A stretch of 64,000 nucleotides of DNA from positions 1 to 64,000 of the IMG/VR virus record IMGVR_UViG_3300044911_003339. The stretch is one strand, 5' to 3'. The notes below the pieces were generated by a model. That model saw only the letters and a list, made by a program, of their open reading frames with translations. It did not search any database and was not told the origin of the DNA. The position numbers were made by a program, and so were the translations under genes. Positions 39,553 through 59,538 of the stretch are shown piece after piece (the first letter of the stretch is position 1; each line of letters starts with the position of its first letter). The stretch comes from a virus.

Positions 39553-40262
39553 TGTCCAGCAAGGCCGAAGCCGTCGTCGTCGCGAAGGCGCTCGCGCTCA
39601 TGGGCAAGCGAGGTCGCCGAGGTCCCGTCGAGGACGAGGTGGCTCCGCGTCGCGCGAGCACGAAGCTCCATCGAGGCCGGAAGATGCCGGCCGAGCCTGC
39701 GTCTCGCTGGCCTCACAGCGCGAAGCGGCCGAAGGCCGTCGTCCAGCCCGACCTCACAGAGCCCGGTGTGCAAGGTCGCCCGCCGAAGTCGAGCGAGACG
39801 CCCGTCTACGGCAAGGGCTCGACCATCGGACCCGGACCAGGCGGCGGAGGGATTCTCGGCAAGCGGAAGGGGAAGCGCCCCTACGCACGCTCGCCGAAGT
39901 ACACGACGCTCGACATGATGGCGGCCGATCTCCACGGCAAGGTCGTCGGCCCGATGGGGTCGAAGGAGAACTCAGGCACCAGCTACGGGCCCGGCCCTGG
40001 ATGGAACTCGAACCCGATGCCGGACTTCGGCGACATGTTCCCCGGCCGAGACCCGAAGGGGTCGGAACGCGAGGAGACGAAGGCGCAAGCGAATCGCATG
40101 GTCTCGAATCGCAAGCGCAACGAGGGTACGATGGGGTTTCACGGAACCCCTCCCAAGCCGACGCTTCGGGCTGAAGCGAAGGAGCAGTTCTTCATCACCG
40201 CGACGCGCGAGAGCGAGAACAAGCCTCGCCTCTACGCGCGCGTCGGCTACAAGAGGTCGTGA
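39552..40262 (+). CDS. basic Pro/Gly-rich putative internal head protein
   Basis: Very K/R-rich, disordered; VVAKA site near N-terminus. Confidence 0.55.
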   Translation: MSSKAEAVVVAKALALMGKRGRRGPVEDEVAPRRASTKLHRGRKMPAEPASRWPHSAKRPKAVVQPDLTEPGVQGRPPKSSETPVYGKGSTIGPGPGGGGILGKRKGKRPYARSPKYTTLDMMAADLHGKVVGPMGSKENSGTSYGPGPGWNSNPMPDFGDMFPGRDPKGSEREETKAQANRMVSNRKRNEGTMGFHGTPPKPTLRAEAKEQFFITATRESENKPRLYARVGYKRS

Positions 40263-43200
40263 TGCCGCTCGGTCACAAGTACATCTCGCGCAAGCGCAAC
40301 GCTTCTGGCGGTTACGATTACGTCTACCCGCATCCCACGACGGGTGAACGCGTTCGCATCCGCACTTCCCTGCGTCTCGACGGCGAGCATCGCTCGGTCA
40401 CGGCCGAGAATCCCGAAGACCGCACGATGTCGGCGACAGCCTGGTCGCGTCGCGGGGCAGACGGCAAGACGCTGACCGAGGCTCACTCTGCGCTCGACGA
40501 GGCCGAAGCTCCGATTCATCGCGCCGCGGTCGCTGACACGATGAACCGGAAGAAGACGATCACGCGCCTCTCGCACAAGACCTCCAGCTACGGCGAGAAG
40601 CACGGCATCGGCCCTGACGACAAGGGAGGCTCTGCGGTTCGTGACGCCGCACGCAAGGCGGCGTGGGCTGCTTCCGAGCCGCCCACTGGAGGCCACACCC
40701 GCGAGACGCACGAGAAGGCCGCGAAGGCGCACGAACACGCCGCGAAGCTCGAACGCGAGGCCGGGCGACGTGATGGCTACGTGAGGCACGCTTCGATGGC
40801 CGAGCAGCATCGCAACGCGATGGAGCGGCTGGGCTCCTCAGAATCCGATTCACCAGTCTATCCGTTCTGGGTCCGCAACCAGAGGACCGGGGTCTCCGAG
40901 GGATTCAAGACGCGTGAGCAGGCCGACACGCACCTGCGGCACTACGTGAAGAATCCCGAGGACCACATCATCGAGCAGGTCGGCGCGAAGGGTCCGAAGG
41001 TCAACGTGGACCACCTGCTCTCCGGCAACATGGGAATCCCGCGCATCGAGATGCCGCAGATCCGTTCCTTCAAGCTGCCCGAGTTCCTCTCCAAGCTGGA
41101 GAAGAAGGGCATCAAGGCGACGAAGGGTGAGCGCGCAGTCGGCTCGCTGAAGCCGACGCAGAACGAGATCCACGGCGAGCGCGTCCAGGAGATCATCGAA
41201 GACCCGAAGGAGCGAGAGAATCTCGCGAAGCAGATCATCATCTCGAACGACGGCTTCATCCTCGATGGGCACCATCGCTGGGCAGCGCTCACGACGATCG
41301 ACCCGAAGGCGAAGATCAAGACGCTCCATGTGGACATGCCGATGCGCTCTCTGCTGAAGGAGGCGCACGCGTTCGAGGGTGTGGAGTACCAGAAGAGCGA
41401 ACAGGAGACGGACATGGGCGGCGACCTCATCGACAACCTCGAACTGCTCGCGAAGGGCGACACGCTCGTCGGCTTCTACTCGCCCGGTGTCGCTCGCGGC
41501 GGCAAGTACTACCGCCGAGTCCCGACCGGGAATCCGAAGCACCCGTGGAGGTACTTCTACACGGAGGCGGAGTACAAGGACGCGATGAAGGACGCTTCGC
41601 ACGTCGGCGGGACCGAGGCGAAGCGGGCGCGCGTGAAGAAGCGCGTCTTCGTGAGCGAGAAGGAGGCGCGCGAGAAGTACGGCCTTCCTGGTACGACGAA
41701 GGAGCTTCACGCGCCGGACGGGAACTACCCGCCCGAGCGGAAGAAGCTCCACGAGGAGATCATCTCGCACTTCCTCGACGGCAAGGGGAAGCCCCCCGCA
41801 GGCAAGAAGCCCGTCGCGCTGCTCACCGTCGGAGGTCCGGCCGCGGGCAAGTCCACGCTGCTGAAGCACCTCGGCGAGAACCTCGACGATTACGTGATGA
41901 TCGCCGCCGACGACGTGAAGGAGAAGCTCCCCGAGTTCCAGCGCGCGCTCAACCTCGGGAATCGCAAGGTGACGCAGCCCGACGGCTCGGTCACGAGCGT
42001 GCCAGTCACGGCGAGCCACTCGGGCTGGATGGCGCACGACGAGAGCACGGACATCTCCGACGAACTGGAGAAGCGCGTCATCGCCTCGGGCAAGTCGGCC
42101 ATCTTCGACGGCACGGGCAAGAACGTCCCGAAGATGCTCGCGAAGATCGCCGCGCTGAAGAAGGCCGGCTACCACGTGCGCGTGGTGATGCCGCACGTGC
42201 CGATGGGCGAAGCGATCAAGCGGCTGCACTCGCGCTCGGAGGACACGGGCCGCACGCTGCCCGTCGATGCGGCGATCGACATGCACCGGAAGATTCCGGG
42301 CAACTTCGAAGCCATCGCTCGCGCTGCCGACGACTTCTCGCTCTTCAAGTCGGGCAACCCGCCGAAGCCGATCTGGACGGGCGGCGCGGGTCAGGAGGAC
42401 AAGATCCACGACCACGAGGAGATGTCGAAGTTCAACCTCGCGCGAGGACTGCACCAGGACATCGGCGCAGAGGAGAAGGCGGGCGGAATCTACAAGAAGA
42501 GCGAGGACCCCGAAGCGCTCGACGCGACCGGCCCGAAGCAGCCGCACCACACCATGAACGAGTTCATGGAGATCCTCTCGCGCTGGAACGGCTCCATCGA
42601 CAACCACGAGGACGGCCGGAGCAAGGTGCCGCACGACGGCGACATCGAGGACGGCCTCGCGGACGTGATTCCCGACGCGGAGGACGAGACCGTCAAGCAC
42701 CTGAAGCGTCGTGCTCCGAAGGCCAAGAAGGCGAAGGGCGCTCGCTTCATGGAGCGAGGCGAGGTCGAGAAGAGCGGCGACCTCATCGACTCGCTGGAAG
42801 CTCTCGTGAAGGGCGGCGAGGCTGCGGGGCACAAGCTGGTGCACTCGGAGAATCCGCGTGCGCACGGAGGAGACGTGACGAAGAGCGACCGCTCGCGTCG
42901 CCTGGAGGAGAAGATCATGAGCGACGAGATGCAGAAGGGCCTCTACCAGTTCCAAGGTCTCGGCTCGGGCGAGGTCCCGGACCAGTACCTCTACGATTAC
43001 CTCTGCGCGTTCGTCGAAGAGGCGTACGAGCACGAGCGGCAGGAGAAGGTGCACCAGAACACGCTCGTGCCGCCGTCGAGCACGGGGGCGAGCATCGAGG
43101 ACGTGTGGGCGACCGCCGTCTTCAACGAACTCGTCAGCATGATGGGCTCGAACGCGAACCTGAAGCGCGCGGCGGTGAAGTACAACGTCACGAAGGACGT

Positions 43201-43624
43201 GATCGCGCACATCCTCCGCAGCAAGGGCCTCGTGCGCCCCTTCTCCGACGCCGGCACGTGGACGAGCGACTACGACTCGATGCGCGCGATGGACGGCGAG
43301 GGCGTCACGCGCCCGCTCGTGCTCTCCGAGTCGGCCCGCGCGCAGTACCGCGACATCGTGCCGGATCCGTTCGGGCACAACGTCGGAGTCGCGCTCGCGA
43401 AGGCCGAGCCCGCGCCGACCGCGCCGCTCTTCATCGACGATTCCCACGACCCGCACGGGAATCTCGCGAAGGCCGAGCGTGCTCGCCTCGCACTCGTGGA
43501 CTACCGGCAGAACGCCGAGTGGCGGCCGAACGTCTCGCCGACGTGTATGATCCACGGCAGCGCGGATCTCACGAAGTCGATGAATCTCTCGAACCCGCAC
43601 GCTCGCTGCACCTGCCCGCGCTGA
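40262..43624 (+). CDS. polyvalent protein: ParB-like domain plus zeta-toxin-like P-loop kinase plus unknown C-terminal domain
   Basis: LKPTQ...IIISNDGFILDGHHRWAA; GGPAAGKST, IAADDVKEKLP, IFDGTG. Confidence 0.85.
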   Translation: MPLGHKYISRKRNASGGYDYVYPHPTTGERVRIRTSLRLDGEHRSVTAENPEDRTMSATAWSRRGADGKTLTEAHSALDEAEAPIHRAAVADTMNRKKTITRLSHKTSSYGEKHGIGPDDKGGSAVRDAARKAAWAASEPPTGGHTRETHEKAAKAHEHAAKLEREAGRRDGYVRHASMAEQHRNAMERLGSSESDSPVYPFWVRNQRTGVSEGFKTREQADTHLRHYVKNPEDHIIEQVGAKGPKVNVDHLLSGNMGIPRIEMPQIRSFKLPEFLSKLEKKGIKATKGERAVGSLKPTQNEIHGERVQEIIEDPKERENLAKQIIISNDGFILDGHHRWAALTTIDPKAKIKTLHVDMPMRSLLKEAHAFEGVEYQKSEQETDMGGDLIDNLELLAKGDTLVGFYSPGVARGGKYYRRVPTGNPKHPWRYFYTEAEYKDAMKDASHVGGTEAKRARVKKRVFVSEKEAREKYGLPGTTKELHAPDGNYPPERKKLHEEIISHFLDGKGKPPAGKKPVALLTVGGPAAGKSTLLKHLGENLDDYVMIAADDVKEKLPEFQRALNLGNRKVTQPDGSVTSVPVTASHSGWMAHDESTDISDELEKRVIASGKSAIFDGTGKNVPKMLAKIAALKKAGYHVRVVMPHVPMGEAIKRLHSRSEDTGRTLPVDAAIDMHRKIPGNFEAIARAADDFSLFKSGNPPKPIWTGGAGQEDKIHDHEEMSKFNLARGLHQDIGAEEKAGGIYKKSEDPEALDATGPKQPHHTMNEFMEILSRWNGSIDNHEDGRSKVPHDGDIEDGLADVIPDAEDETVKHLKRRAPKAKKAKGARFMERGEVEKSGDLIDSLEALVKGGEAAGHKLVHSENPRAHGGDVTKSDRSRRLEEKIMSDEMQKGLYQFQGLGSGEVPDQYLYDYLCAFVEEAYEHERQEKVHQNTLVPPSSTGASIEDVWATAVFNELVSMMGSNANLKRAAVKYNVTKDVIAHILRSKGLVRPFSDAGTWTSDYDSMRAMDGEGVTRPLVLSESARAQYRDIVPDPFGHNVGVALAKAEPAPTAPLFIDDSHDPHGNLAKAERARLALVDYRQNAEWRPNVSPTCMIHGSADLTKSMNLSNPHARCTCPR

Positions 43625-43660: not shown

Positions 43661-45460
43661 ATGGGCCTGTTCGACAAGTTCAAGGATGGATTCGAAGCGC
43701 TCGCGAAGGCGCTCGGCGAATCCGAGGAAGACGGCGAGGACATCCCCTTCGACAAGATGCGGGATGCCCTCGTGCGTTCAGGTCTCGCGGAACCGACGGA
43801 GGAGAAGCCGCGCGCGCTCTTCCACGATCCCTACGCGGTCACGGACTGGGGAGGCTGGCGAGAGCGACCGTCGTCGATGACGTACGAGACGCTTCGCATG
43901 ATGAGCGTGAAGAACACGGTCATCGCCTCCATCATCCAGATCCGGTGTAATCAGGTCGCGCAGTTCGGTCGGCCTCAGCAGGGCCCGTACGACAAGGGCT
44001 ACCGGATCATCCCGCGCGACAGGCGGGACAAGAAGAAGGTGCTCACGCCCGCGGAGAAGAAGCAGGCCGCGGAGATCGAGCGGATGCTGGAGACGACGGG
44101 CTTCCTCCTGCCCGGCGAGAAGCCCGCGGATCGCGACAGCTTCCGCACCTTCTTGCGGAAGGCCACGCGCGACATCCTCACCTACGACCAGTGGGCGTTC
44201 GAGAAGATTCGCGACCGCAAGGGTCGCGTCTCGCGCTTCATCGCGCTCCCCTCAGAGAGCATCCGGCCGGCGAGCGCGGACATCGAGCACATGGACGTGA
44301 AGTCCCTGCGCGAGCGCGTCTCGCACGTCCAGGTCTACGAGGACACGCCGATCGCCGAGTTCAGCCCCGAGGACATCGCGTGGTGCGTGATGAATCCTCG
44401 CTCCGACCTGCGCGCGAACGGCTTCGGCTTCTCGTACATCGAGATGCTCGTCTCGCTCGTGACCGCGTGGCTCTACGGGTTCGAGTACAACCAGCGATTC
44501 TTCATGCAGGGCAGCGCCATCAAGGGCATCCTGAACGTGAAGGGCGCGATTCCCGATCGTCAGCTTCGTGCGTTCCGACGCATGTGGTATTCGATGGTCT
44601 CGGGCGTGAGCAACGCGTGGAAGACGCCGATCCTCAACAGCGAGGATCTCCAGTGGGTCCCGCTCCACGTGAACAACCGCGAGATGGAGTACGGGCAGTG
44701 GATGGACTGGCTCACGAAGCTCACGTGCGCCGTGTTCGGAATCGATCCCGTCGAGATCAACTTCATCTTCGGCAACAGCGGGCAGTCGTCGTCGCTGAAC
44801 CAGTCGCGCCCGAACGCGGCGGAGGTCCAGGAGTCGAAGGACAAGGGCCTCGTGCCTCTCATGGACCACATCGCCGACAACCTGAACATGCACATCATCT
44901 GGGAACTCGCACCAGATTTCGAGTTCGCCTTCACGGGCTTCGACGCGCAGGCCGAGGAGAAGGAGCAGGAGGGTCGCATCAAGGCGGTCACGAACTACAA
45001 GATGATCGACGAGGTGCGCGCGCTCTACGAAGACGATCCGCTGCCGAACGGCATGGGCCAACTGATTCTGAATCCGACCTACATGCAGTGGGCGATGCAG
45101 AAGGAGCAGGCCGCGATGGGCGGACCTCCCGGTGGAGGTGAGGGCGACATGGGCATGGGCGATCCCGACGCGCTGCCCTCCACAGCACCGGGCAACGACG
45201 AGGAAGACCTCGCAGGGCCTCCCCAGAAGGGCCCGCCCAAGCCCGGCCAGCCCCCGAAGGGTCCGCAGGGCCCGCAACCCCCGAAGGGCGCGCAGAAGCC
45301 CCCAGGGAAGCCCTTCGGCTCCCCCGGTGAGGAAGCGCTCCAGGCGTCAGCCTTCGTCGAGCGCACGGCGCGTGGCATCCTCCGCAAGTCCCGCGTACAC
45401 ACGCGCACCGAAGGCGGGCGGGAAATCATCGACATCGAACTGCCGGAGGATCCGACATGA
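43661..45460 (+). CDS. portal protein
   Basis: NPRSD...GFSYIE...YNQRFFMQG...KGILN...EMEYGQW...FGIDPVEINF...SKDKGLVPL; SPO1/Twort-like. Confidence 0.92.
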   Translation: MGLFDKFKDGFEALAKALGESEEDGEDIPFDKMRDALVRSGLAEPTEEKPRALFHDPYAVTDWGGWRERPSSMTYETLRMMSVKNTVIASIIQIRCNQVAQFGRPQQGPYDKGYRIIPRDRRDKKKVLTPAEKKQAAEIERMLETTGFLLPGEKPADRDSFRTFLRKATRDILTYDQWAFEKIRDRKGRVSRFIALPSESIRPASADIEHMDVKSLRERVSHVQVYEDTPIAEFSPEDIAWCVMNPRSDLRANGFGFSYIEMLVSLVTAWLYGFEYNQRFFMQGSAIKGILNVKGAIPDRQLRAFRRMWYSMVSGVSNAWKTPILNSEDLQWVPLHVNNREMEYGQWMDWLTKLTCAVFGIDPVEINFIFGNSGQSSSLNQSRPNAAEVQESKDKGLVPLMDHIADNLNMHIIWELAPDFEFAFTGFDAQAEEKEQEGRIKAVTNYKMIDEVRALYEDDPLPNGMGQLILNPTYMQWAMQKEQAAMGGPPGGGEGDMGMGDPDALPSTAPGNDEEDLAGPPQKGPPKPGQPPKGPQGPQPPKGAQKPPGKPFGSPGEEALQASAFVERTARGILRKSRVHTRTEGGREIIDIELPEDPT

Positions 45461-46221
45461 GCGTCCGCACCTTCCTCGACATGAGCTTCCAGATCGGACT
45501 GGAGAACAGTCTCGACGATTCGCTGTTCGAGCGCACGAACTCGCAGCTTCTCGACACGCTTGACCACGCAACCGGAGGTGTCGTGTCGCTCGCGGCGCTT
45601 CAGACGAACGTCACGCTGCCCTTCGGCGACGTGACCGAGGCGCGAATCCTCTACATCGAGGCCGAGGACGGCGACGTGCGCTTCACGCTCGGCGGCGGGC
45701 TCGCGACCTCGGGGCGTATCGACGCCGTGGGCGCGGCCTACCCGACGGGCTTCGTCGGCGCAGAGACGCTCGACTTCGAAGTGGACGCCACGGCGATCGC
45801 CGTGACCTTCACGTCGGGAGACCAGACGATCACGCAGGTCATCAACCGTATCAACGCGGCGTGCGCGCTCGCGGGATTCGCCACGCCGATCGCGAAGGTG
45901 AGCGCGGGGCAGCTTCGCCTCGAAAGCCCGACGACGGGCACGTCTTCGTCGATCGAGATCATCGGAGGCACAGGCCGCGCGACGCTCGGCCTCCCCGCTC
46001 CCTCCACCATCAACTCAGGTGCGAACTCGACGCCCGGCACGAGCCCCGTGGAGCTTCGTCGTCCCGCGGACCCCGCGGGCGCGAGCGCCGCGGCAGGCGT
46101 GAAGGCGATCTTCTTCGGCACCGTGAAGACGAGCAGCATCGTCATGGAGAATCTCTCCGACAACGTGACGAAGGTGCGCTGGGCGATCGCGGGAGACCTC
46201 ACGACCGACGACGCGTGCTGA
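45457..46221 (+). CDS. putative structural protein
   Basis: Beta-rich; INRINAA...LRLESPTTGTSSSI domain seen in sheath-like insertions. Confidence 0.5.
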   Translation: MSVRTFLDMSFQIGLENSLDDSLFERTNSQLLDTLDHATGGVVSLAALQTNVTLPFGDVTEARILYIEAEDGDVRFTLGGGLATSGRIDAVGAAYPTGFVGAETLDFEVDATAIAVTFTSGDQTITQVINRINAACALAGFATPIAKVSAGQLRLESPTTGTSSSIEIIGGTGRATLGLPAPSTINSGANSTPGTSPVELRRPADPAGASAAAGVKAIFFGTVKTSSIVMENLSDNVTKVRWAIAGDLTTDDAC

Positions 46222-46231
46222 CGGAGGTCCC

Positions 46232-48046
46232 GTGGCTCGCGTACGCATCGAAGCCCCCGAGGGACTGGACCGACTGACGCTCGCGCAGATCGTCGTCGGT
46301 CCTCACCTGCTTCTGAAGTCCCAGCACGTCCGGCATGCCGGCGAGCGGACGTTCTCGCGCTACGTCGCGCTCCAGGAGTTGAACGAGCACGTCGTGAAGT
46401 CGTTCGAGGAGACGCTGAAGCAAGCGCTGAAGCGCGCGGACGATTACATGCAGCGCACGGTGCTGCTCGCCGACGTGGGGCTGCGGAAGGCGGACGAGCA
46501 CCTCCCCGCGTTCCCTCCGCTCTTCACGCCCGAGCAGATGGAGGCGGTGCGCCGCATCCTCACCGATCACGTGCACGGCTTCATCGCGACGACCGTGGAT
46601 CCGAATCTTCTCTCGCAGCACGAGGTCGCGCGCCTGATCGCCGAGGGAGTGATTCCCGCGTCGATGAGCTACGTGTTCCAGGCCGAGCCGGGGCAGGAGG
46701 CTCCTCTCGCCGAGGACTGGATCGGAGCGGCCTACACCTACGGCGCGATGCTCGGCTCGATGCGAGAGGGCGATGACGCCGCCTACGTGAAGTCGCTGTC
46801 GTGGCCGACGTTCGCCAAGAAGCAGAAGGCACAGCCGCTCGTGCTGACCCCGCACGAGCAGGCCGCGCTCGACGTGGCGAAGCACAGCGCGGGCATCCAC
46901 TGCCGCGGGCTCGGGAACGAAGTCGCCGACGACTTCTCGACGATCGCCATCGACACGGACCGCGCGCTGCGGAAGCGATTCGAGCACGAGATCCAGACCT
47001 CGACCGAGGCGAACATCGCGCGCCGCGACGCGTGGCGGAAGCTCGCGAGCGACCTCGGGCACAAGACCGGGGACTGGGCGCGAGGCTTCGGGCGCATCGC
47101 CGCGACCGAGAAGCAGCGCGCGTTCCAGGAGGGATTCTCCACGACGCTGAAGAAGCGCGAGAAGAAGCGCCCCGAGGACGTGCGCGTCGCCAAGCTCCCG
47201 GCACCCGACGCGTGCCCCGACTGCGTGCGCCTGCACCTCACCGCAGGTCCCGGTTCCAAGCCGCGCATCTTCTCGCTCGCAGACCTGGAGGCCAACGGCT
47301 CGAACATCGGCGTGAAGCGCGCCTCGTGGAAGGCCGTCGTCGGGCCGGTGCATCCGTGGTGCGGGTGCGAACTCGTGCACGTGCCCGACGGCTGGGATTT
47401 CGACGACGAGAACAAGCTCATGCCCACGAAGCTCGAACGCAGCGCACGCCTGGAGGCGGACCTGCGGAAGAGCGCGGACAAGCAGCGACACCTGACCTAC
47501 AGGGAATCGGTTCCCGAGAAGGGCATCGTCGTTCGCGTCGGCGACCCGCTCACGCGAGCGGAGATCGACAAGGTGATCGCGCGCACGCCCGAAGTGCTGT
47601 TCGACCACAAGGTCGGCGTCACGCTCATCACGACCGATCTGCCGACGGTGCAGAACGTGCTCGACCCGCACGATCTCGCCTACTGGACGGGCAACGAGAT
47701 TCGCCTCTCGCAGACTCTCGCGCCCGAGCGCGTGAACCTCGTGCTCATGCACGAGTTCGGTCACGCGCTGAACGTGTTCCTCTACCAGAAGTTCGACGAG
47801 AACACGGACCGCGTGCGCGCGTGGCACGACGCCCTGTTCGCCATCGCGAAGGTCGAGGGCTTCGTCTCCGATTACGCGACCCGCGAGCCGATCGAGAACG
47901 CAGCCGAGGTGACCCGGCTCTACCTCTACGACCGGCCGAAGCTCATGCGGGAGTTCCCGCGGCAGTTCGCCTTCTGCCAGAAGGACTACCGCGACATCCT
48001 CCCGCCCTGGAAGTGGAGGAACGATGGCGATTCTAAAGATCGCTGA
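46232..48046 (+). CDS. MuF/SPP1 gp7-like head morphogenesis protein fused to HEXXH metallopeptidase
   Basis: RIAATE...CPDC...GPVHPWCGC; then MHEFGHA...VSDYA...ENAAE. Confidence 0.85.
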   Translation: MARVRIEAPEGLDRLTLAQIVVGPHLLLKSQHVRHAGERTFSRYVALQELNEHVVKSFEETLKQALKRADDYMQRTVLLADVGLRKADEHLPAFPPLFTPEQMEAVRRILTDHVHGFIATTVDPNLLSQHEVARLIAEGVIPASMSYVFQAEPGQEAPLAEDWIGAAYTYGAMLGSMREGDDAAYVKSLSWPTFAKKQKAQPLVLTPHEQAALDVAKHSAGIHCRGLGNEVADDFSTIAIDTDRALRKRFEHEIQTSTEANIARRDAWRKLASDLGHKTGDWARGFGRIAATEKQRAFQEGFSTTLKKREKKRPEDVRVAKLPAPDACPDCVRLHLTAGPGSKPRIFSLADLEANGSNIGVKRASWKAVVGPVHPWCGCELVHVPDGWDFDDENKLMPTKLERSARLEADLRKSADKQRHLTYRESVPEKGIVVRVGDPLTRAEIDKVIARTPEVLFDHKVGVTLITTDLPTVQNVLDPHDLAYWTGNEIRLSQTLAPERVNLVLMHEFGHALNVFLYQKFDENTDRVRAWHDALFAIAKVEGFVSDYATREPIENAAEVTRLYLYDRPKLMREFPRQFAFCQKDYRDILPPWKWRNDGDSKDR

Positions 48047-51000
48047 TCTCGTGAAGAGCGGAGGTCCGTACATCGGGCCGAAGGGCGGTGTGTGGGCCGA
48101 CCCGCAGCACACGGTGCCGTGGAAATCGGATCATGAGGACACCACCTCTCACTTGTTCCACTCCACGCCCGCGTACGCGATGAGCCGGATCAAGCGGGAA
48201 GGTCTTGCTCCGCGCAAGGGCGCAGGTCTCTTCCAGCACGGCGGCTACGATCTGCACTCGCAAGGCAAGGTGTTCCTCTCGAACAACCTCTACGCGGCGA
48301 AGCAGTGGCACAGCAAGGTCGAGGCTCAACTCGAACACCACCACGATAATCCGAAGCACCACGTTGCAGTCATGCTTCGTGTGAAGCCTCGGGAGACGCA
48401 TCTCGACGATGTTGGAGACCGCGATGTGAGCGGCTCTCGCTTCGTGCGCGACGTTGTGCCTGCAACCGACATCGAGTTCTTCCACGAAGGTACGAAGCGC
48501 TGGAAGCCGGTGAAGGATTACAAGCACGGCACGCACGGTATCCCGGACGACCACTACGAAGCTCACGCGCCGCGCGACGAAGAGGCAGACGCCGCCGAGA
48601 AGGCCGCAGCGAAAGAGGCACGACGCGCGAAGCGCGAAGCCGAGGAGCAGGCGACTCGCGCGCGGCTCGCGGCGCTCCAGGAGGAGCGCGCGAAGCGCGA
48701 GGCTGCGGAAGCGCAGGTTCACTTCAGGGATTCTGACGAAGGCAAGGCAATCCTCACGCGCTGGAAGGGCCTCTCCCCCGAAGAGCGTCAGGCGAAGGCG
48801 AAGCGCATCCTCGACGCGCCCCGCCCTTTCCCCGGCGCTCCCTCGATGCTGTCGCTCGGGCAGCGAGGCGAGGTGTGGCGCGAAGCTCTCGGAGTCGATG
48901 AGAAAGGGAATCTCGTGAAGTCGCGATTCATCATCAAGGCAGGCCCCTCAGGTGGGGGTTGGATGCCGATCCCCGGAGGCCACCACGGAGGGCTTCGGCG
49001 ACGACACGGCGCGGGCTGGGAGTACTGGTACCCGAACGGAGCCCCGCACTTCGTGCTCCGCGAGCAGAAGCACCCCGAGGAGCAGCACGGGCACGAGCAG
49101 ATCGACCCGGAGCCCTCGCACTGGGCCCTCGTCACGCCCGGCCCCGGCCTGCCCCCGGTCGGGTGGACCGCGGGCGGCGTGAACCCGCACGACACGAAGA
49201 CCCCCGTGAAGGAGGCCGGTGTCTCGGGGAAGCTCTACCGCATCAAGAATCCGCACATCCGAGAAGGCTGGGCGCTGCTCACCGACGTGCGCTCGGGCGA
49301 GGACCACATGGTCCAGCACGACCGCGTGATGCCCGTTCGGTGGCTTTCGCCCGAAGAGAGGGCTCTCCAGGGCTCTACAGAGCCTCAGGAGCCGTTTTCG
49401 ACCTGGAAGCCAGGGGTGGGTCCCTCCAAGCGCCCGAGCGGCGGAGGGGCGTCTGAGGGCAAGCGGATGCCCTCCTTCCCCGACTCCCGAGCGCTGCCCG
49501 GAACCGAGACGCACAAGCTGGAGAACGGCGCGTACGTCTGGCGCAAGGTCACGCGGTACGAAGCCGACGAGGACGGCACCACTCGCAAGGTCGAGCGGCT
49601 CGCGCCTGGAATCCCCGACTCCGACAAGATCGCGCTCATCGCAGAGTACGAGGGCCTCGTCGCCAAGACGGCGAAGCGCGTGCGCAGCGCGTTCGGGCTC
49701 AGCGCCCGCCTCTCCACCGGCCCCGGTCAGCGCACGGTGGACGACACGCTCGTCGAGCTTCGGCAGGCCGGCGTGGAGGGTCTGCTCCACGCCATCGACA
49801 GCTATCGCCCCGTGGGCCCGTTTGCAGCGCACGCCCAGCAGTACGTTCGCGATTACGCGCGTCTCCACGCCGCACGGGAGTTCGCGGGAGGCATCGCGAT
49901 CCCGCGGCGGCATGCGCGCCTGCTCTCGTCCTACATCGCGGCCCGCGCAGAGGCCGCGCGCGTGAGCGGAAGCCACGACCCGAGCCCCGAGGTGGTCGCG
50001 GAGTTCTGGAAGCCGAAGAAGCGGGACCTGCACTCGGGCCTCTCGCCCGAGGAAGGCGGAGGAACGATTCCTCTCGCTGGCTACACGCTGAAGCGCAAGA
50101 CGACCTCGACCGATCCCGAGACGGGCAAGAAGAAGACGACCGTCGAGGGCGAGGACGTGGTGCAGCAGCCCGGCCGCCTGGAGTGGGCGCAGCAGTTCCA
50201 CGCGTTCCTCGTCGGGCAGGGAGGCATGGCGGACATCGACGAGCAGGCCGCGCTGTTCCCCGGCCTCGGCGTCGGCACGGGGCTCGGCGCGGACGAGCGC
50301 ATCGCCGTGCGCGAGGCGATGATGCGCGCGCTCCCTCCCGACGGGACGATCGTCACGGTCCAGGCGGGCCCGCAGGCCCAGTTCCGCGGCGAGACCTGGA
50401 AGGCGATCGACCTCGCCCTCGGGCTCTCGTCGGGCGATCCGCTGCCTCTCGACGAAGTGGTCCGTCGCGTGCCCGTCGAGGGATCGCGCGGAGGTGAGTG
50501 GAAGCGTCTCGGAAGCTCGCGAGCGCGCGCCGCGATCGAGGCGCTCATCCGCGACGGCCTGAACACGGTCGCGCGTCACCTGCGAGGCGACGAGGACCGA
50601 GCAGCGTCGCTCGCGCAGGCCCTCGTGACGAAGCTCGTGCCGACCGAGGCTCCGAAGGAGCGGCTCCCCACGATGCGAGAGCGAATCCGCGCTGCGATGG
50701 CCCGCATCACCCCGGCCGAGGTGCAGCGCTGGCGCGAGGAGACGCGAGCGCGCTACCCCGAGCGGCCCGACATCGGCCGACGGATGTCTCGTGTCACCGA
50801 TTCCGAAGCGAAGCGCCGCATCGTCGAGGAGCGCATCGCCGCAGCCCCGCTCACGCCCGAGATGCACGAGGCGATGCTCCGCACGATGACGGCGATTCGC
50901 CAGGGCGTCTCGGCCTCGGGCCAGAACGTCTTCGGCGTCGTGGACCCGAAGGGGTCGAAGAAGAGCCTGCGCGTGCACTCGCTCTCCAAGGCCGGCGACC

Positions 51001-51137
51001 ACGGCGCGTCCGATTCGGCTATGGTCGGGGAGTGGCTCCGGTTCCCGGAGCTTTCGCGACTTCGCTGGGCGAGCGAAGATCCGCTCGTGCACGCTCCGAC
51101 GATCGCTCGCGCACGGTTCGATTCCATCATCGGGTGA
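48024..51137 (+). CDS. polyvalent protein: ART/Tpt1-fold domain plus sigma70-like domain
   Basis: LFHSTP...IKREGLAP...VFLS...VMLRV; LIAEYEGLVAKTAKR...ELRQAGVEGLLHAIDSY...FAAHAQQYVR...IAIP...PSPEVVAE...LALGL...PLPLDEV. Confidence 0.8.
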   Translation: MAILKIADLVKSGGPYIGPKGGVWADPQHTVPWKSDHEDTTSHLFHSTPAYAMSRIKREGLAPRKGAGLFQHGGYDLHSQGKVFLSNNLYAAKQWHSKVEAQLEHHHDNPKHHVAVMLRVKPRETHLDDVGDRDVSGSRFVRDVVPATDIEFFHEGTKRWKPVKDYKHGTHGIPDDHYEAHAPRDEEADAAEKAAAKEARRAKREAEEQATRARLAALQEERAKREAAEAQVHFRDSDEGKAILTRWKGLSPEERQAKAKRILDAPRPFPGAPSMLSLGQRGEVWREALGVDEKGNLVKSRFIIKAGPSGGGWMPIPGGHHGGLRRRHGAGWEYWYPNGAPHFVLREQKHPEEQHGHEQIDPEPSHWALVTPGPGLPPVGWTAGGVNPHDTKTPVKEAGVSGKLYRIKNPHIREGWALLTDVRSGEDHMVQHDRVMPVRWLSPEERALQGSTEPQEPFSTWKPGVGPSKRPSGGGASEGKRMPSFPDSRALPGTETHKLENGAYVWRKVTRYEADEDGTTRKVERLAPGIPDSDKIALIAEYEGLVAKTAKRVRSAFGLSARLSTGPGQRTVDDTLVELRQAGVEGLLHAIDSYRPVGPFAAHAQQYVRDYARLHAAREFAGGIAIPRRHARLLSSYIAARAEAARVSGSHDPSPEVVAEFWKPKKRDLHSGLSPEEGGGTIPLAGYTLKRKTTSTDPETGKKKTTVEGEDVVQQPGRLEWAQQFHAFLVGQGGMADIDEQAALFPGLGVGTGLGADERIAVREAMMRALPPDGTIVTVQAGPQAQFRGETWKAIDLALGLSSGDPLPLDEVVRRVPVEGSRGGEWKRLGSSRARAAIEALIRDGLNTVARHLRGDEDRAASLAQALVTKLVPTEAPKERLPTMRERIRAAMARITPAEVQRWREETRARYPERPDIGRRMSRVTDSEAKRRIVEERIAAAPLTPEMHEAMLRTMTAIRQGVSASGQNVFGVVDPKGSKKSLRVHSLSKAGDHGASDSAMVGEWLRFPELSRLRWASEDPLVHAPTIARARFDSIIG

Positions 51138-51145
51138 GGTTCTCC

Positions 51146-51490
51146 ATGAAGAGGTTCTCCATCGACCCCGCCACGCTGCCGACCACATGGCGGGTCGGGC
51201 GGCGTGTCGGCAATAGCGGGCTGGAGCACGCCTTCGATCTCCGCCGTCGGGATGACGGCGGAATCTCCATCTCGAACGTCGAGCACCCGCTCACGGAGAC
51301 CGAGCGCACCATGCTGCTCTCGCACTTCGGCAAGGCGCGCGTCGTGACGATCGGAGGCGAGGCCGACAACGGCGCGCTCGTGACGACGATGCAGCGCCAC
51401 GAGCCGGGGGAGATCGAGAACTTCGTGGAGGCGGTCTACTCGCTGCCCTCACCCTTCATGGTGATGCCGAACGCTCGGAGGGAGACATGA
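51146..51490 (+). CDS. hypothetical protein
   Basis: GAGGT SD; coupled to the giant gene. Confidence 0.65.
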   Translation: MKRFSIDPATLPTTWRVGRRVGNSGLEHAFDLRRRDDGGISISNVEHPLTETERTMLLSHFGKARVVTIGGEADNGALVTTMQRHEPGEIENFVEAVYSLPSPFMVMPNARRET

Positions 51491-54400
51491 GCCGGTTCGT
51501 GATTCCTGCGCTCCGCGCCGCACTGCCGGACGCCCTGGCGAAGTCGTTCCAGCGAGGCCCGCTCGCGCAGCACAAGTACCTGAAGCGAGAGCCCTACTTC
51601 GTCGGGGGCAAGCTGCGCTGGAGGTACTGGTACGCGAGCGACGAGCTTCGCAAGCAGGGCATGGTCGAGCACGACCCCGCGGGCGAGCACGAGCACCACC
51701 TGCTCGCGAACATCGCGGACATCTACGAGCACTTCAAGTCCGTGATCCGCTCGACTGCTGCGACCCCGACGACGGCGATCGAGGGAATCTTCCAGGCCGC
51801 GGTCGATGACCCGAAGGCGCAGCGCGTGCCACAGGTCGCGATGTCTCCGGCGTTCCAGGCGCAGCACGTTCAGCCGTTCATCGACGCAGAGGCGAAGGGA
51901 GCACCTCCCGAGGCGAGCCCGATCGTGCGCGTGCACGACGCGCTGGAGATGGTGCCCGACTACCTCCTGAAGCTCGTGATGGGCGGGACGAAGAACACGA
52001 AGCACCCCGGCTACAAGGGGCTCGGCCCGTACCCCGGTCTCTCCGCGCTCGTGATGAATCGCCAGGAGGACGAGGGAGCGGATTACGCGAACACCGCAGG
52101 TTGGGCGCATCCGAAGACGGGCGAGCTTCACCTGCTTGGCGGCGGCTCGGGCAAGCACGGCAGCGATTCGAGCTACTCCTTCCTCGACGGCGGCGACCCT
52201 GCCACGGCTCCCACGCCGACGGACTTCAACGACGCGAAGGTGCATCTCGAAAAGGTCGTCTGGCACGAGCTTGGGCACCACGTGCACTTCACGCTGGAGA
52301 CCGAGCAGCCGGACGTGATGGATTCGTGGAGGGACCTCTCGACGGGTCCGGGTCCGAAGCCGACGGCCTACGCGCACACGGCATGGTGGGAGGACTTCGC
52401 AGAATCCTTCTCGGGCTGCTTCGCGCTCCCGAAGGTGATGGCGATGCGCTGCCCCGAGCGATACGACTGGATGCGACAGCACGTCCTGAAGTCGCTGCCC
52501 GAGAGGTCCGCGCTCCTGAAGATGTCGGACGAGGAACTCGCGTGGTGGAACAAGAAGAAGACCACGCCGCCCGGCAAGCTGCTGATGCACCTGAAGTCGA
52601 ACGCGCCCGCGCGTCGCTTCGGTGCCTACTACAGCGACAAGGACCAGTTCTTCACGGTCGGCAAGGGAGGGCGCACGGTCTACCTGCGCTTCGGTCCGTC
52701 CGAGCCTGATCAGGAGGACGGCTGGACGCAGGTCCCCTCGACCATCGACCCGGAGACCGGGCTGCCGGTCTACGACGCCGCCTACGGTCCGCGCTTCAAG
52801 GTGCAGGGCAACCTGAAGGAGATGTACGACGAGCGCGGGAATCCGCTCGACGACTTCCAGGCGTTCCTCTACCTCGGACAAGACGACCCCGAGGTGCAGA
52901 AGTTCGTCGCCGACACGATGGAGAAGTACGTCGCGACGTTGCCTCCGAACTCGCCGCAGCCGACGGAGTACGACGCGGTGCAGTGGCTCGCCGCGAAGGG
53001 CGGCGACGAGGCGAAGGCTCTGGAGACGCGTCTGCTCTCGTACAAGATGTACACGTCGCTCGGCTACAAGCGGGAGTCGGAGAAGATTTCCGCGAAGGAA
53101 GCCCACACGACGGAGAAGGAGCGCAAGCGAGTCGAGAAGGAGCGCGCGAAGGGCGGCACGGGCTACCTCGATCGCCACGACTGGGTTCCGGTCGAGATTC
53201 CTCGCTCGGAGTTCGTTCAGAAGTCGGGCACCTTCAAGTTCGACAACGTGCGACCCGCGGAGTACCAGCCGTGGCAGGCCCGCGAGTGGGATCCCGTCAC
53301 GAAGACCTCGCGTGTGAAGACCGTCTACGACCCTGCGGCCGGCAAGGTGGTGCCCGTGCGCACGGCGACGGTCTACGAGCAGGAGAACCCCGACGGCACG
53401 ACGTTCCGTGTGACGGTCGCGGAGGGCGAGCCCTTCTCGATCGGACAGACCATCCTCGCGCCGGTCAGCGTGAAGCTGCCCGACGGTCGCATCTCGCAGG
53501 ACTGGCAGCCCTACAAGCTGTCCGTCGAAGACGGCGAGATGACCGTCACGAACCTCGCGAAGAAGTTCCGCGTCGATCCTGAGGCGCTCCTTCGTCAGAA
53601 TCACCGCTACATGCGCGGGCAGATCACGGACCCGATGCTCGCCGCGCTCCTCAACCCGAGCGGCGAGGTGATTCGCGATCAGTTCGATCTCATGCGCCTC
53701 ATGAAGCTCGCGGCCGAGCAGCCCACGCCGCCGACCGCGTGGGTCAGCGTCCGGGGCAAGACGGGCTCGATCGCTCACTTCAAGGTGAGCTTCGACGGCT
53801 CGGGCCCGCCGCGCGTCGAGGGTCGTCAGTGGGCCGCGAAGCTCGGGAAGGACCCGACCGAACCCATCCGCCTCGATCAGATTCTCGGGAAGGACGACGA
53901 ACTCATCGGCGTCGAGACCGTGCGCGAGCGGAAGGCGAAGGAGGTCAAGATCAAGCCGGGCGGCCTGGTGTGGGTCACCGTCAAGAATCACCTCGGCGAC
54001 GCGAAGCGCGTGATGGCGCGCTACATCGAGAAGAAGTCGTTCGAGGAGAAGGGCAAGAAGAAGAACGCCCACGTCGTCCAGGTGCTCCCCGGTCAGGGCA
54101 CGGGTCTGCCGAAGGACCGCGTGATCGTCACGCGCGTGAACAAGAGCGACGAGAGCCAGATCCCCGGCAAGCCGGAGATTCGTCGGCGCTTCGTCGAGCC
54201 GATGCAGAAGGACGTGCTGCTCTACGCCGACGAGGTGCGGGTCGGCTCGGGCGACCGAGACACGAGCGGCGTGATCAAGATCCTCCCGCCGAAGAACGGC
54301 TCGGTCACGAAGGCGCAACTCGCTGCGATTCCTGGCGTGCGCATCATCGGACTGGAGAAGGCACGGAACAAGAAGGGCGGAGCAGTCACGGAGGAGCTTC

Positions 54401-57400
54401 CCGAGGGCGTCGAGCTTGCCATCTCGCCCCGTGACCTCCCGGCCTTCCGGGAGTACCTCGGCGGCTTCGTGATGGACGAGCGCGTCTCGTCCATGATGGA
54501 CGAGCAGGCTGCCATCATCCGAGAGCGCGCGCTCCAGGTGACCGGAGAGGACTGGCCTCCCGCAGACCAGATCGTCGATGCGGACGGCAACGTGAATCCC
54601 AACGGAGTGCTGCGCGGCATGGTGACGGGCGCGATGGGCATGCAGCCCGGCGCGCATCGCATCGAGGCGCTTCAGCGCGTCGCGATGAACAACGGTCGCC
54701 TCATCGCTGCGCACTTCATGGGCACGGGCAAGACCGCGTTCTCGATCGCAGCCGCGCAGATGATGCGGAACCTCGAATCCCGCGAGCAGCCCGGCAAGCC
54801 GCACCCGAATCAGGTGAAGAAGAAGGTGCTCGCGCTCGTGCCGCTCAACACCGCGAACAACTACGCCGACGAGGTGGAGGTGTTCACCGGAAGGCCCGCA
54901 ACGATCATCGGCTCGGGCTCGCTCGCGGGCAGCGTGCGGATGTTCCGCATGCCGAAGGACCAGGGCCAGAAGAAGAACGAGACGCGCGAGGCGTTCATCG
55001 CGCGCTCGCTCGCCGCATGGAAGGCGGCGGTCAAGACCGACCCGACGCTGTGGAACCCGTGGGCAGACGATTCCCAGATGTGCGTCTGCCCCTACGAGTA
55101 CTTCCGCGACAACGAGGAGTTGATGCGGGCCACGGAGATGTTCGACGGGCTCGTCGTGGACGAGGCGCACAACATCGCACGTGAGAACGAACTCTCACGT
55201 GCGGTCGAGCGCTGGAATCCGAACATGAACATGTTCCTCATGCTCACCGGCACGCCCGTGACGAACACGCTCGACGTGCTCCCGCGTATGGCGAGCCTCG
55301 TGAGCGCGGGCAAGGTGAACCTCGGCACGAAGCAGGAGTTCACGGAGCGCTACCTCGTCGGCTCGGCTGTCGCGAAGGGCGAGGGCGCGAAGAATCCTCC
55401 GAAGACGGACCTCAACCCGCAGCGTGCCGGCGAACTGGCGGCGATCATGCGTCCGCTCATGCACATCGCGACGACGCAGGACGTGAAGGGCAAGACGATG
55501 CCCGCGGTGCTGCTCGACGAGAACAAGCCCGCGCACATGATCGGTCAGCAGGCGCGCATGTACCGACTCTCGATGGCGAAGTTCACGCCCGAGGAGAAGG
55601 CGGCGATCATCGAGAGCGGTGCGGTCGGCACCGACGAGTCGTACGCGCTCGATGACGAGGGTCGCCGCAAGATCGGTGTCGCTCGCTCGATCGCGAACTG
55701 CCTCGCCTACAAGGCACCCGACCAGCGTGAGAATCTCACGTACGAGTCGAAGAGCACCGAGGAGAAGAAGGGCAAGGTCATCGAGAAGACCGTCACCCGC
55801 GTCTTCTCGCTGCCCACGCACGCGATGATGACGACGAAGCGCCCCGAGGGCTGGGGCGGGAAGTGGCCGACGTTCTCGGAGGTCGAGAAGGGAATCGTCG
55901 AGCCGGGCTACTACAACGTGCTCTCGGAGTACTACGAGCGCCTCTTCGGCGTGACGTACGACTCCGTGGAGGGCAAGCCCATCGCGAAGGAGATCCTGGA
56001 CGGCGTGAAGCGCGGCGACTACGTGACGCCGAGCGGCGCGCCGTGGGGTACGGTCGTGAATCCCGATTACGGCCCAGAGGGCATGATCTGTCGCGGCACG
56101 CTCGACCCGGTGACGGGCAAGATCGAGCCGCTGCGGAAGGAGATCGTCGAGAACGGGCAGAAGCGCGTCGTCGAGGTCAAGCCGGGCACGCGCTTCATCC
56201 GCGATCCGAACTCCAAGGCGGCGGGCCTCTTCTACCACGAGGATGACTGGAACTTCACCGGCCGCTTCATCGACTCGGGCGAGGGAGGCGGCGGCGAGGG
56301 TGGAGGCGAGGACGATCCGTCCGACCCGAAGCCCGCGTCTGCCGGCAAGCAGGCCCCGAAGGACCCCTCGCTCTCCATCCAGCGTTCGACGAAGCGCCGG
56401 AAGGAGCGAGAGATGTTCGACCTCGCGGTCACGGCGGGCAACGCGAAGAGCGACGAACTGGAGCAGTACATCCACAACGCGCTTCGCGACGACAACCTCG
56501 GGCCCGATCAGCAGTTCATCCTCTTCGGGAATCGCATCGGCTCTTCCTTCCGCACGATGGAGAGCAAGCTCCGCACGATGGGATTCCAGGACGTGAACGA
56601 AGCGCTCGGGCACCCCGAGTGGAGCACGGCCGAGGACAAGGCGATGATGCCTCGGAAGTTCTTCGTGACGTACGCGGGCAAGGGAGCAACGCTCGGCGAC
56701 CGCGACATCAACTCGGAAATCTTCCGACAGAAGCTCGACCAGTTCGGCCACAAGACCGGGCAGTCGATGTTCGTCTTCCGCACGCTCAACGGCGGCACGA
56801 AGAAGCCACCCAAGGTCGGCGAGATGCGCGAGGGCTGGAGCCGTGGCCAGCGGAAGCGCATCGCCGACGCTCTCGCGGAGCCCACGCGCAAGACGGCCGA
56901 GGGCAAGCCTGCGGGCCTGGAGGTGCCGATGCGCGTGACGAGCGTCGAGGTCGATGGTCGCATCGAGCAGCGGTACCTCTACGAGTCGGACATGAAGCCG
57001 AAGGATCGCGCAGAGTTCCTCCGGCTGGAGAAGGAGCGCCGCGGCGCGGACAAGGCGCGCAAGCAGGCGATCGACGGCGAGATGCGCGCGCTCGCCGACC
57101 GCTACTGGAGCGACCGGATTCCTCTGTCCGATCACTACCAGTACGTGCTGAACAACACGCAGATCATGGTGGCGACCGACGCCGCGAACGTCGGCCTCAA
57201 CTGGCCTGCTCCCAAGCTCGTCATGTACGACTCGCTCTTCTCGCCGATGGACGAGTGGCAGCGCATGACGCGTGCGGCCCGCATGCTCGACGCAGCGGTC
57301 ACCGGACCCGCGAAGAAGTACGTCGAGAAGATCGACGCGAAGCTCTCCGAGATGGAGAAGCAGACCGGGCTGAAGGAGTACGGACCAGAATCTTCCCTTC

Positions 57401-58656: not shown

Positions 58657-58716
58657 CGCTGCTGCCGGATTCGTGACACACCATGGACCGTGGCCTGCTC
58701 CCGTGTGGAGCACGAG

Positions 58717-58752
58717 AGGCGACCGAAGGAGAAATCCATCGGTCGCCTTTTT
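58717..58752 (+). terminator. terminator-like hairpin upstream of protease gene
   Basis: AGGCGACCGA-A-GGA-GAAA-TCC-A-TCGGTCGCCT followed by TTTT. Confidence 0.7.
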
Positions 58753-58782
58753 CGTTCTCGGGTCGCAGATCGCGCGGACGCG

Positions 58783-59538
58783 ATGAAGACCTCTCCCCAG
58801 CGCAAGTTCAGCTTCGACTTCGATGTCGAGGTGTTCGAGAAGGCGAGCCCCGAAGGAACGGAGCGCCGCATCGGCGGAATCGTGTCCACCGATCACCTCG
58901 ATCGTCAGAGCGAGGTGCTGCTTCAGGAGGGCCTGGACTTCTCGCCCTTCCTGAAGGGCGGGTGGTTCAACGACAACCACGAGTCCACGACGGACAGCGT
59001 GATCGGCTACCCGACGGCGGCCGAGCTTCGTCACCTGCCGGACGGCAGGAAGGGCTGGTACGTCGAGGGCTACCTCCTGAAGACCGACCGCGCGAATCGG
59101 ATCTGGGACCTCGCGACCGAGCTTCAGCGCTCGGGCTCGGGGCGCAAGCTCGGATTCTCGGTCGAGGGCTCGATCGCCGAGCGCGACCCGGACGACCCGA
59201 AGAAGGTCCGCAAGGCCGTCGTGCGCGAGGTCGCGATCACGAAGTGCCCGGTCAACACGAACACCGCGCTGCACGTGCTGGCGAAGTCGCTGGCCGTTGG
59301 TGCGGGTGGGCCGCCCTCAGGGCCGACGGGTGACGCGAGCGTGCTCGCGCCCGAGGCTCTGGAGGGCGTGAGTCCCGCGCGCCCGAGTCCGAAGGACCCG
59401 AAGAAGCGCCGCAAGGTCAAGCAGCGGATGAACAAGTCCGAGGCTGTGGATTTCTTGCTGTCGGTTCGGCCTGGGATGTCTCGGGCGCTCGCAGAGCGCG
59501 TGGTCGAGTACGCGATTCGGTGGCACCCGGCCGCCTGA
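58783..59538 (+). CDS. prohead protease (HK97/herpes-like fold)
   Basis: IGGIVST...DRQSE...GLDF...GWFNDNH...IGYP...LGFSVEG...VAITKCPVN. Confidence 0.92.
   Translation: MKTSPQRKFSFDFDVEVFEKASPEGTERRIGGIVSTDHLDRQSEVLLQEGLDFSPFLKGGWFNDNHESTTDSVIGYPTAAELRHLPDGRKGWYVEGYLLKTDRANRIWDLATELQRSGSGRKLGFSVEGSIAERDPDDPKKVRKAVVREVAITKCPVNTNTALHVLAKSLAVGAGGPPSGPTGDASVLAPEALEGVSPARPSPKDPKKRRKVKQRMNKSEAVDFLLSVRPGMSRALAERVVEYAIRWHPAA

Follow-up and report, generated by a model that had tools for sequence, protein, structure and literature searches.

P0001, the product of an open reading frame (ORF) at 48024-51137 on the plus strand of an uncultured-phage genome (IMG/VR virus record IMGVR_UViG_3300044911_003339; 105,161 bp, rated complete by CheckV), is a 1,037-residue protein of the phage head block that joins an ADP-ribosyltransferase (ART) fold to a module of the sigma70 family. 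The stretch analysed here, hereafter the window, is the first 64 kb of that record. Judged by sequence profiles and by predicted structure, residues ~489-870 of P0001 are a very divergent sigma70-type core in which regions 1.2/2, 3.0 and 4 occur in co-linear order. Polyvalent head proteins are known in phages, and the sigma-family cargo is the new element of the P0001 family. The best explanation in our eyes, held at about even confidence, is that P0001 is a head-block polyvalent protein whose two cargoes, an ART and a sigma module predicted to bind the host polymerase, would be packaged, cut and injected, the latter then directing transcription to promoters.

Sequence and structure of the sigma-like module

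The kinship with sigma factors was found with several profiles. The one built for the sigma-like part from 12 sequences, namely that of the window and those of 11 distinct viral contigs (profile A6), retrieved sigma factors exclusively from the PDB up to an E value of 0.01, and 15 of its 16 matches up to an E value of 10 were sigma factors. RpoS was matched at 2.2e-6 in two co-linear stretches, corresponding to regions 2-3.0 and 4, and was accompanied by region 4 of Mycobacterium tuberculosis SigB (4.8e-6), isolated sigma-4 domains (4.5e-4 to 1.5e-3) and FliA (7e-3). Similarly, a profile of 29 homologues matched RpoS (2.4e-4), FliA and SigA in the PDB, and the 13 best matches of a profile restricted to the sigma-4 part were all sigma region 4 (0.004-0.05), with SigA/RpoD region 4 at 0.004-0.03. 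Comparison with Escherichia coli RpoS by hhalign gave a single co-linear alignment over RpoS residues 103-298 (E value 9.5e-5), and the region 3.0 stretch IAIPRRHARLL...PSPEVVAEFW of P0001 aligns with IRLPIH...PSPEEIA of RpoS. Furthermore, the Pfam families that recur among the homologues are Sigma70_r2, Sigma70_r4 and Sigma70_r3 alone, all below threshold, Sigma70_r4 being hit in 3 and Sigma70_r2 in 2 of 12 relatives.

The structural comparison points in the same direction. The C-terminal module of P0001 (residues 301-1037) was modelled as a unit of 737 residues with a predicted local distance difference test (pLDDT) of 76.8. In an unbiased search of 48,161 chains, sigma chains filled the top 13 ranks and accounted for 22 of the first 23 rows, the sole exception being an engineered epitope scaffold at rank 14. 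Domain 2 superposes on E. coli sigma70 (1sig) with a Z score of 8.5 and a root-mean-square deviation (rmsd) of 1.5 Å over 75 residues, and on 5h6x with a Z score of 8.9. Domain 4 taken alone (model residues 455-560) superposes on region 4 of M. tuberculosis SigA (6ono_B; Z 5.8, 69/69 residues, 2.6 Å) and, with 62/62 residues, on 4g6d_A; the rmsd to sigma factors spans 1.5-2.7 Å for domain 2 and 2.3-2.6 Å for domain 4. After re-ranking of the Foldseek matches with VIA, all 50 best rows were sigma factors (Z 6.8-9.2). When Foldseek was given all 737 residues of the model at once, E values were weak and myosin noise appeared among the sigma chains, and domain-level VIA searches were needed. The nearest neighbours in BFVD and in the ESM atlas were phage and bacterial sigma clusters. 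A structure search for sigma regions 2 and 4 had been named in a preliminary description of this DNA, and it has returned sigma chains for both domains.

Along the gene, the regions follow one another in the order known from the sigma70 family (RpoS, SigB and FliA, or gp28 of phage SPO1 and gp55 of phage T4). The region 1.2/2-like domain (residues 489-625; 49488-49898; this and all features of the gene given below are on the plus strand) displays a beta-hairpin where sigma70 has its non-conserved region and contains the strings LIAEYEGL (residues 538-545, from 49635), ELRQAGVEGLL (578-588) and PFAAHAQQYVR (599-609). Next come the region 3.0-like helix (residues 626-665; 49899-50018), with IAIPRRHARLL at residues 624-634 and PSPEVVAEFW at 653-662, and a long beta-hairpin (residues 687-715; 50082-50168) located between regions 3.0 and 4, at the place of the 3.2 linker or finger. 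The region 4-like helix-turn-helix domain (residues 755-860; 50286-50603) carries two beta-hairpin inserts and includes the strings AIDLALGLSS (794-803) and SSRARAAIEALIRDGL (831-846, up to 50561). The ORF and the strings quoted in the preliminary description are thus real, and the strings lie within about 12 nt of the positions given there.

P0001 differs from the sigma70 family in that its sigma core lies within a 737-residue unit with extra domains, inside a head-block polyprotein, and stays below the Pfam thresholds. Upstream of the core, a small beta-barrel (residues 361-447; 49104-49364) resembles Tudor/KOW domains in weak matches (Z 5.0-5.4). Folds of the Tudor/KOW type bind RNA polymerase in CarD, Mfd and NusG, and the match of the barrel is too weak to be used here. 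Downstream, a helical and beta region (residues 861-986; 50604-50981) is without known relative.

The predicted contact of the module with RNA polymerase is also the canonical one of the sigma70 family. Complex modelling with the coiled coil of beta-prime, which the preliminary description had proposed, was performed with residues 489-678 of P0001 and residues 215-345 of E. coli beta-prime, E. coli being a stand-in for the host, and the clamp-helix contact was obtained in the model. The pair scored 0.66, whereas the best of 3 controls reached 0.05, and the 0.66 mark is attained by 58 of 80 solved complexes and by 2 of 110 mismatched pairs. At least 74% of the contacts are common to the runs, and the partner pLDDT is at least 70. 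In the modelled interface, the beta-prime clamp helices (residues 267-298) face the region-2.2-like helix (residues 574-592) and the 2.1-like helix (residues 532-539) of P0001. The clamp-helix binding surface looks preserved in this model, which we read as likeness rather than as binding because similar holoenzymes have been solved, from which the high score may come, and because E. coli replaces the host.

Module borders, fusion partners and the ART fold

Homologue searches divide P0001 at residue 300 into an N-terminal and a C-terminal module. Residues 1-300 recur as stand-alone proteins of 260-306 residues, the C-terminal end of which falls exactly at LV[RK]x, and are also found within other multi-domain proteins. 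The C-terminal module (residues 301-1037) defines a protein family of uncultured phages, for which clustering at 50% leaves ~130 representatives. Its commonest fusion partner, seen in 15 of 29 homologues, is an inorganic pyrophosphatase (InPase) of the polyvalent type, and its other fusion partners are topoisomerase IB, SAM lyase, LPD1 and ddrB-ParB. Its closest relative (64% identity) has InPase in place of the ART module, and a 96% identical contig retains the ART module. At third codon positions, the N-terminal module has a G+C content (GC3) of 0.76-0.78, with 0.76 for the ART segment, as compared with 0.87 for the C-terminal module and 0.87-0.92 for the other genes. Domain swapping, at which the codon usage of the ART segment had hinted in the preliminary description, is directly visible, because the partners differ among relatives and GC3 differs between the modules.

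The module borders are marked by short motifs and by conserved linkers. LVKS occurs at residues 9-12 (48048-48059), with a candidate maturation cut after Lys11, and at residues 297-300 (48912-48923), at the border of the N- and C-terminal modules. Among 200,000 shuffles that preserved the composition, 0.011% (about 1 in 10,000) had two such copies, and each copy in P0001 is followed by a conserved linker. Linker tag type 1 (residues 13-34, GGPYIGPKGGVWADPQHTVP; 48060-48125) recurs between the modules of relatives; its consensus, G-(G)-P-[YF]-I-G-P-[KR]-G-G-x-W-A-D, is present in 53 copies in the homologue set, 42 of which are preceded by h-x-[KR]-[SAGNT]. Linker tag type 2 (residues 301-337; 48924-49034) consists of a Gly-rich stretch and the beta-hairpin GWEYWYP. 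In 10 of 11 aligned relatives, h-x-K-[SAG] stands directly before the C-terminal module. The LVKS sites, which had been described as fences around the ART domain, indeed coincide with the borders at which relatives exchange modules. At the C-terminal end of the protein, LSKA (residues 987-990) and a conserved 47-residue tail (together 50982-51134) are common to the closer relatives L005-L009.

The same pattern is encountered in other head proteins. LRKA is found near the N-terminus of the major head protein (residues 26-29; 60734-60745), is kept in 5/5 relatives examined (L005-L009) and would fit the loss of a short N-terminal propeptide after Lys. The scaffold-like protein contains eight h-x-K-[SAG] motifs. 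As far as a sequence pattern can suggest, the h-x-K-[SAG] borders fit a head-protease code.

A hairpin tag (basic stretch...W-x-Y-[WF]-Y) was also observed near module starts in three proteins of the window, namely the zeta-kinase polyprotein (41546), the ART-sigma protein P0001 (49017) and the SNF2 protein (51619). In a library of 1.8 billion proteins, many unrelated long proteins match this tag alone, some of them several times.

The N-terminal module was modelled with a pLDDT of 78, residues 1-40 forming a disordered linker. Its ART-fold domain (residues 35-170; 48126-48533) resembles the NAD lobe of Tpt1/KptA, and its helical part (residues 171-296; 48534-48911), a long charged helix with a small helical bundle, is conserved in the stand-alone homologues. 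Foldseek matched the module to KptA/Tpt1 with probabilities of 0.99-1.0, and VIA-align superposed the ART domain on KptA/Tpt1 with a Z score of 8.6 and an rmsd of 2.5 Å over 86 residues (23-25% identity), model residues 35-154 being aligned with residues about 84-180 of KptA. All 50 listed VIA rows are ART folds, among them Tpt1, the catalytic chains of heat-labile and related toxins, DarT and Arr. The motif h-h-H-[GS]-T-P...G-L-x-P is shared with Tpt1/KptA, and the strings LFHST (residues 44-48), KVFLS (82-86) and DIEFF (149-153) belong to this domain. His46, Arg64, Phe84 and Glu151 are invariant in 13 sequences, with His46, Phe84 and Glu151 on predicted strands; Glu151 sets the domain apart from Tpt1/KptA, since Tpt1 does not need this residue. 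No Pfam family, PF01885 and ART-PolyVal (PF18760) included, matches residues 1-200 at E values up to 10, and phmmer with the single sequence against the PDB gave noise and a weak Tpt1 hint (E 0.9). The Tpt1/ADP-ribosyltransferase fold announced for the N-terminal domain in the preliminary description is upheld by the Foldseek and VIA comparisons, and on the structure model we regard the domain as a minimal ART-fold enzyme composed of the NAD lobe alone and not as a Tpt1 orthologue.

The head block and a probable promoter motif of the phage

The P0001 gene starts with an ATG at 48024, 5 nt downstream of a GGAGG Shine-Dalgarno sequence (48015-48019), and stops at 51135-51137; its first 23 nt are shared with the end of the preceding 604-aa gene. 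The surrounding plus-strand block is without a break and has the portal and MuF genes on one side of P0001 and the prohead protease, scaffold and capsid genes on the other. The head-operon context given in the preliminary description is borne out by the location of the large terminase (TerL), the portal and the major head protein in the same block. A scan of 43-62.5 kb detected neither an interrupting promoter-like site nor a terminator-like site on the plus strand.

All genes of the block are on the plus strand. TerL (31139-32872) and a 1,121-aa zeta-kinase polyprotein (40259-43624; zeta-toxin/kinase domain, E 5e-20) precede the portal (43661-45460), which is 37% identical to portals of the SPO1 type, a 254-aa gene (45457-46221) and the gene of a 604-aa MuF-like minor capsid protein whose C-terminal region is zincin-like (46232-48046). 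P0001 is followed by a 2,211-aa SNF2 protein (51487-58122), a prohead protease candidate (58690-59538), a 344-aa scaffold-like gene (59554-60588) and the major head protein (60659-62083). With E 0.011, the prohead protease candidate weakly matches the Caudovirus prohead serine protease S78, and its ORF is the likelier gene than the overlapping ATG ORF at 58683-59333, which looks wrong-frame because it is rich in Arg. Residues 97-417 of the MuF-like protein share ~30% identity with the Bacillus phage Nachito "minor capsid protein"; its C-terminal region begins after an LRKS motif (border after K) at residue 411, and its matches to zincin peptidases stay below threshold. On this sequence likeness, the MuF-like protein is a candidate processing peptidase. 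The zeta-kinase polyprotein, in which ten h-x-K-[SAG] motifs were counted and GC3 falls to its lowest local value in the block (0.76), is a candidate for further polyvalent cargo.

The order portal, MuF-zincin, sigma module, SNF2, protease, scaffold and capsid is found at loci L004-L015 and L020, i.e. on 12 further distinct viral contigs and on the near-identical L004. The 2,211-aa SNF2 protein is always located 3' of the sigma-like module in the relatives and may be a RapA-like partner of RNA polymerase. By description, it can be set beside the large helicase that a Thermus phage preprint reports among structural genes and detects in virions by mass spectrometry. With regard to the partner domains, one portal protein of solved structure (9b41_L) includes an InPase domain. 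A tblastn search of 50,697 cultured-phage records (INPHARED) gave no match for the SNF2 neighbour, an outcome unexpected for an SNF2 protein and perhaps due to a limit of the tool, and a scan of GTDB genomes gave no relative and hence neither a prophage copy nor an indication of the host.

Outside the head block, the window carries a repeated motif, AATCGKGTAR, with 11 copies between positions 681 and 27217, all on the plus strand, against 0.09 expected. Genome-wide, 14 copies were counted, 13 of them on the plus strand, those outside the window being at record positions 87773, 88624 and 100087. The sites precede by 8-25 nt the start codons or ribosome-binding sites of non-structural genes (0.6-27 and 88-100 kb) and frequently overlap the upstream stop codon, and the motif is absent from the head block. 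From these positions, it is probably a phage-specific promoter giving leaderless or short-leader transcripts.

A second ORF with a sigma region 2 at its end occurs at record positions 103722-105161 (G000; L002:1462-2901). It reached 26.5 bits in the genome search (cut-off 24) and 21.8 bits, below the cut-off, when scanned alone; the Pfam models Sigma70_r3 and Sigma70_r4 had no match in the genome, and the genome search revealed no RNA polymerase of the multisubunit type. This ORF runs off the end of the record in frame with a 5'-open ORF at window positions 1-618, and both may be one gene of ~685 residues if the genome is circular or permuted. With an hhalign probability of 0.5%, it is ruled out as a close paralogue of the head-block module. 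Either the head-block module, as proposed in the preliminary description, or this second sigma ORF may serve the AATCGKGTAR sites.

A proposed packaged sigma cargo and its alternatives

In the explanation that we favour, P0001 would be made late with the head proteins and then loaded into the prohead, where it would be cut after Lys at the LVKS borders, either by the prohead protease or by the putative zincin of the MuF-like neighbour, and the cleaved pieces would exit the capsid with the DNA. The first cargo module (residues 13-296), putatively a minimal ADP-ribosyltransferase akin to the Tpt1/KptA NAD lobe, would modify a host target. The second (residues 301-1037), with its divergent sigma70-family core, would bind the host core RNA polymerase via the beta-prime clamp helices and steer it to phage DNA ahead of all phage gene expression. 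Packaging, cleavage and injection are inferred here from gene position, partner domains and motifs. More tentatively, and with somewhat less than even confidence, this scheme may hold for a whole clade of uncultured phages with portals of the SPO1 type, which would carry in the capsid a pre-made sigma, together with an ART, a pyrophosphatase or a topoisomerase, freed after Lys at h-x-K-[SAG] and injected to reprogramme the host polymerase.

The closest known system is that of the phage-type polyvalent proteins, including those of the P1 DarB/DdrB type (Iyer, Burroughs, Anand, de Souza, Aravind 2017, PMC5512222), which like P0001 are large, multi-domain, encoded beside portal and MuF genes and built of shuffled effector modules. 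Homologues of the C-terminal module of P0001 carry the InPase, LPD1 and ddrB-ParB domains, which are markers of phage polyvalent proteins predicted to be injected (PMC5512222), and a putative zincin peptidase is encoded next door. Sigma factors are never mentioned in the polyvalent catalogue, none of its Pfam families matches P0001, and it has neither the conserved 25-residue linker tags of P0001 nor the h-x-K-[SAG] borders with the break after K (the word "linker" has 0 occurrences; PMC5512222). T4 Alt, a virion-packaged and protease-processed ADP-ribosyltransferase that modifies the host RNA polymerase (PMC5512222), resembles P0001 in being an ART fold encoded with head genes, and P0001 like Alt may be processed and delivered with the DNA. 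By description, Alt has an active site of the Arg-Ser-Glu type, whereas the ART of P0001 starts with the His motif LFHST and is fused to a sigma-like module.

Several observations weigh against the favoured explanation. When region 2.3/2.4 is aligned to RpoS, the residues for recognition and melting of the -10 element are mostly replaced, with His at the equivalent of Tyr430 and Gln-Tyr at that of Trp433-Trp434; Arg436 is kept and the equivalent of Gln437 is Asp. Region 1.1 and the region 3.2 finger are unrecognisable in the sigma module, region 3.2 offering no alignable sequence and having the hairpin of residues 687-715 in its place, and region 4 of P0001 contains two hairpin inserts, one of them inside the helix-turn-helix. 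The "complete sigma70-like factor" of the preliminary description therefore stands for regions 2, 3.0 and 4, recovered by profiles and structure, and loses the word complete. P0001 itself, searched as the whole protein and as four pieces, passes no Pfam or PHROG threshold (Pfam at E values up to 10), and tblastn against the cultured-phage records found no homologue of it. The best structural Z scores (8.5-9.2) are within the range that helical domains reach by common arrangement; since Z alone is insufficient, the argument for a sigma factor draws on the independent matches of two domains, which occur in order and both in sequence and in structure. The N-terminal RNA-binding lobe and the catalytic Arg-His of Tpt1 are absent from the ART domain. 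Lastly, the presence of the second sigma ORF makes the need for an injected sigma weaker.

Some of these departures would suit a P0001 that is packaged and injected and whose sigma surface merely holds the host core polymerase, with no choice of promoter, either as a decoy shutting off host transcription or as a tether for the DNA end, the SNF2 motor or the fused enzymes (ART, InPase, topoisomerase IB). Conservation is highest in the core-binding helix, the one that the complex model places on beta-prime; the residues for melting of the -10 element have been exchanged, a hairpin interrupts the helix-turn-helix of region 4 in P0001, the giant SNF2 protein always adjoins, and extra domains such as the Tudor/KOW-like barrel are present. 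We nevertheless consider this scenario unlikely: regions 3.0 and 4, needless for a simple decoy, are kept across the family, and region 4 of distant relatives is without both inserts, uninterrupted, and resembles a plain region 4. Many true alternative sigma factors likewise lack the melting residues of group 1.

The head-block position could also have another meaning, P0001 being an unpackaged late regulator or enzyme, for instance a sigma for late genes or for the next cycle, that is co-transcribed with the head genes, with LVKS as recombination joints. Each module does occur as a stand-alone gene in relatives, so the borders could be joints of gene fusions. To our knowledge, every phage sigma factor described to date is encoded on its own and made after infection as an early or middle product, and our literature search for packaged or virion phage sigma factors found no example, reovirus sigma proteins being the most that it returned. 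This alternative seems improbable, however, in view of the location between portal/MuF and protease/scaffold/capsid, which is conserved down to ~25% identity, of h-x-K-[SAG] also occurring at the capsid N-terminus and in the scaffold, and of the marker domains of head-delivered polyvalent proteins among the fusion partners. Very improbable, finally, is a chance or convergent likeness of helical bundles in a structural internal head protein or DNA-binding protein with no polymerase link, to which the missing Pfam match of P0001, the ordinary Z scores and hhalign probabilities of just 59-76% against the single RpoS sequence would lend themselves, but domains 2 and 4 each match sigma factors on their own and in the correct succession, both in profiles (E 2e-6 and 5e-6) and in structure, and nearly no other family competes in either search.

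We know of virion-borne transcription takeover as whole polymerases (N4, phiKZ, crAss-like phages) or as modifiers (T4 Alt) alone. If the packaging reading of P0001 is true, the strategy would be that of the N4 virion RNA polymerase and of phiKZ, AR9 and the crAss-like phages, in which the means for first transcription lie inside the particle; whereas those phages inject a whole polymerase, P0001 would bring the specificity subunit of the host enzyme alone. It would then be a third takeover strategy, beside the injected polymerase of N4 and the injected polymerase modifier of T4, and would explain how the programme starts in a phage with non-host promoters and without a polymerase of its own. 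It would furthermore add a new cargo class to the polyvalent proteins, and the pyrophosphatase and topoisomerase fusions, together with the SNF2 gene that always adjoins, would suggest that a whole kit for starting transcription is delivered. Should P0001 not be packaged, its family would still be a deeply branching lineage of sigma factors, so far uncatalogued and distinguished by unusual inserts.

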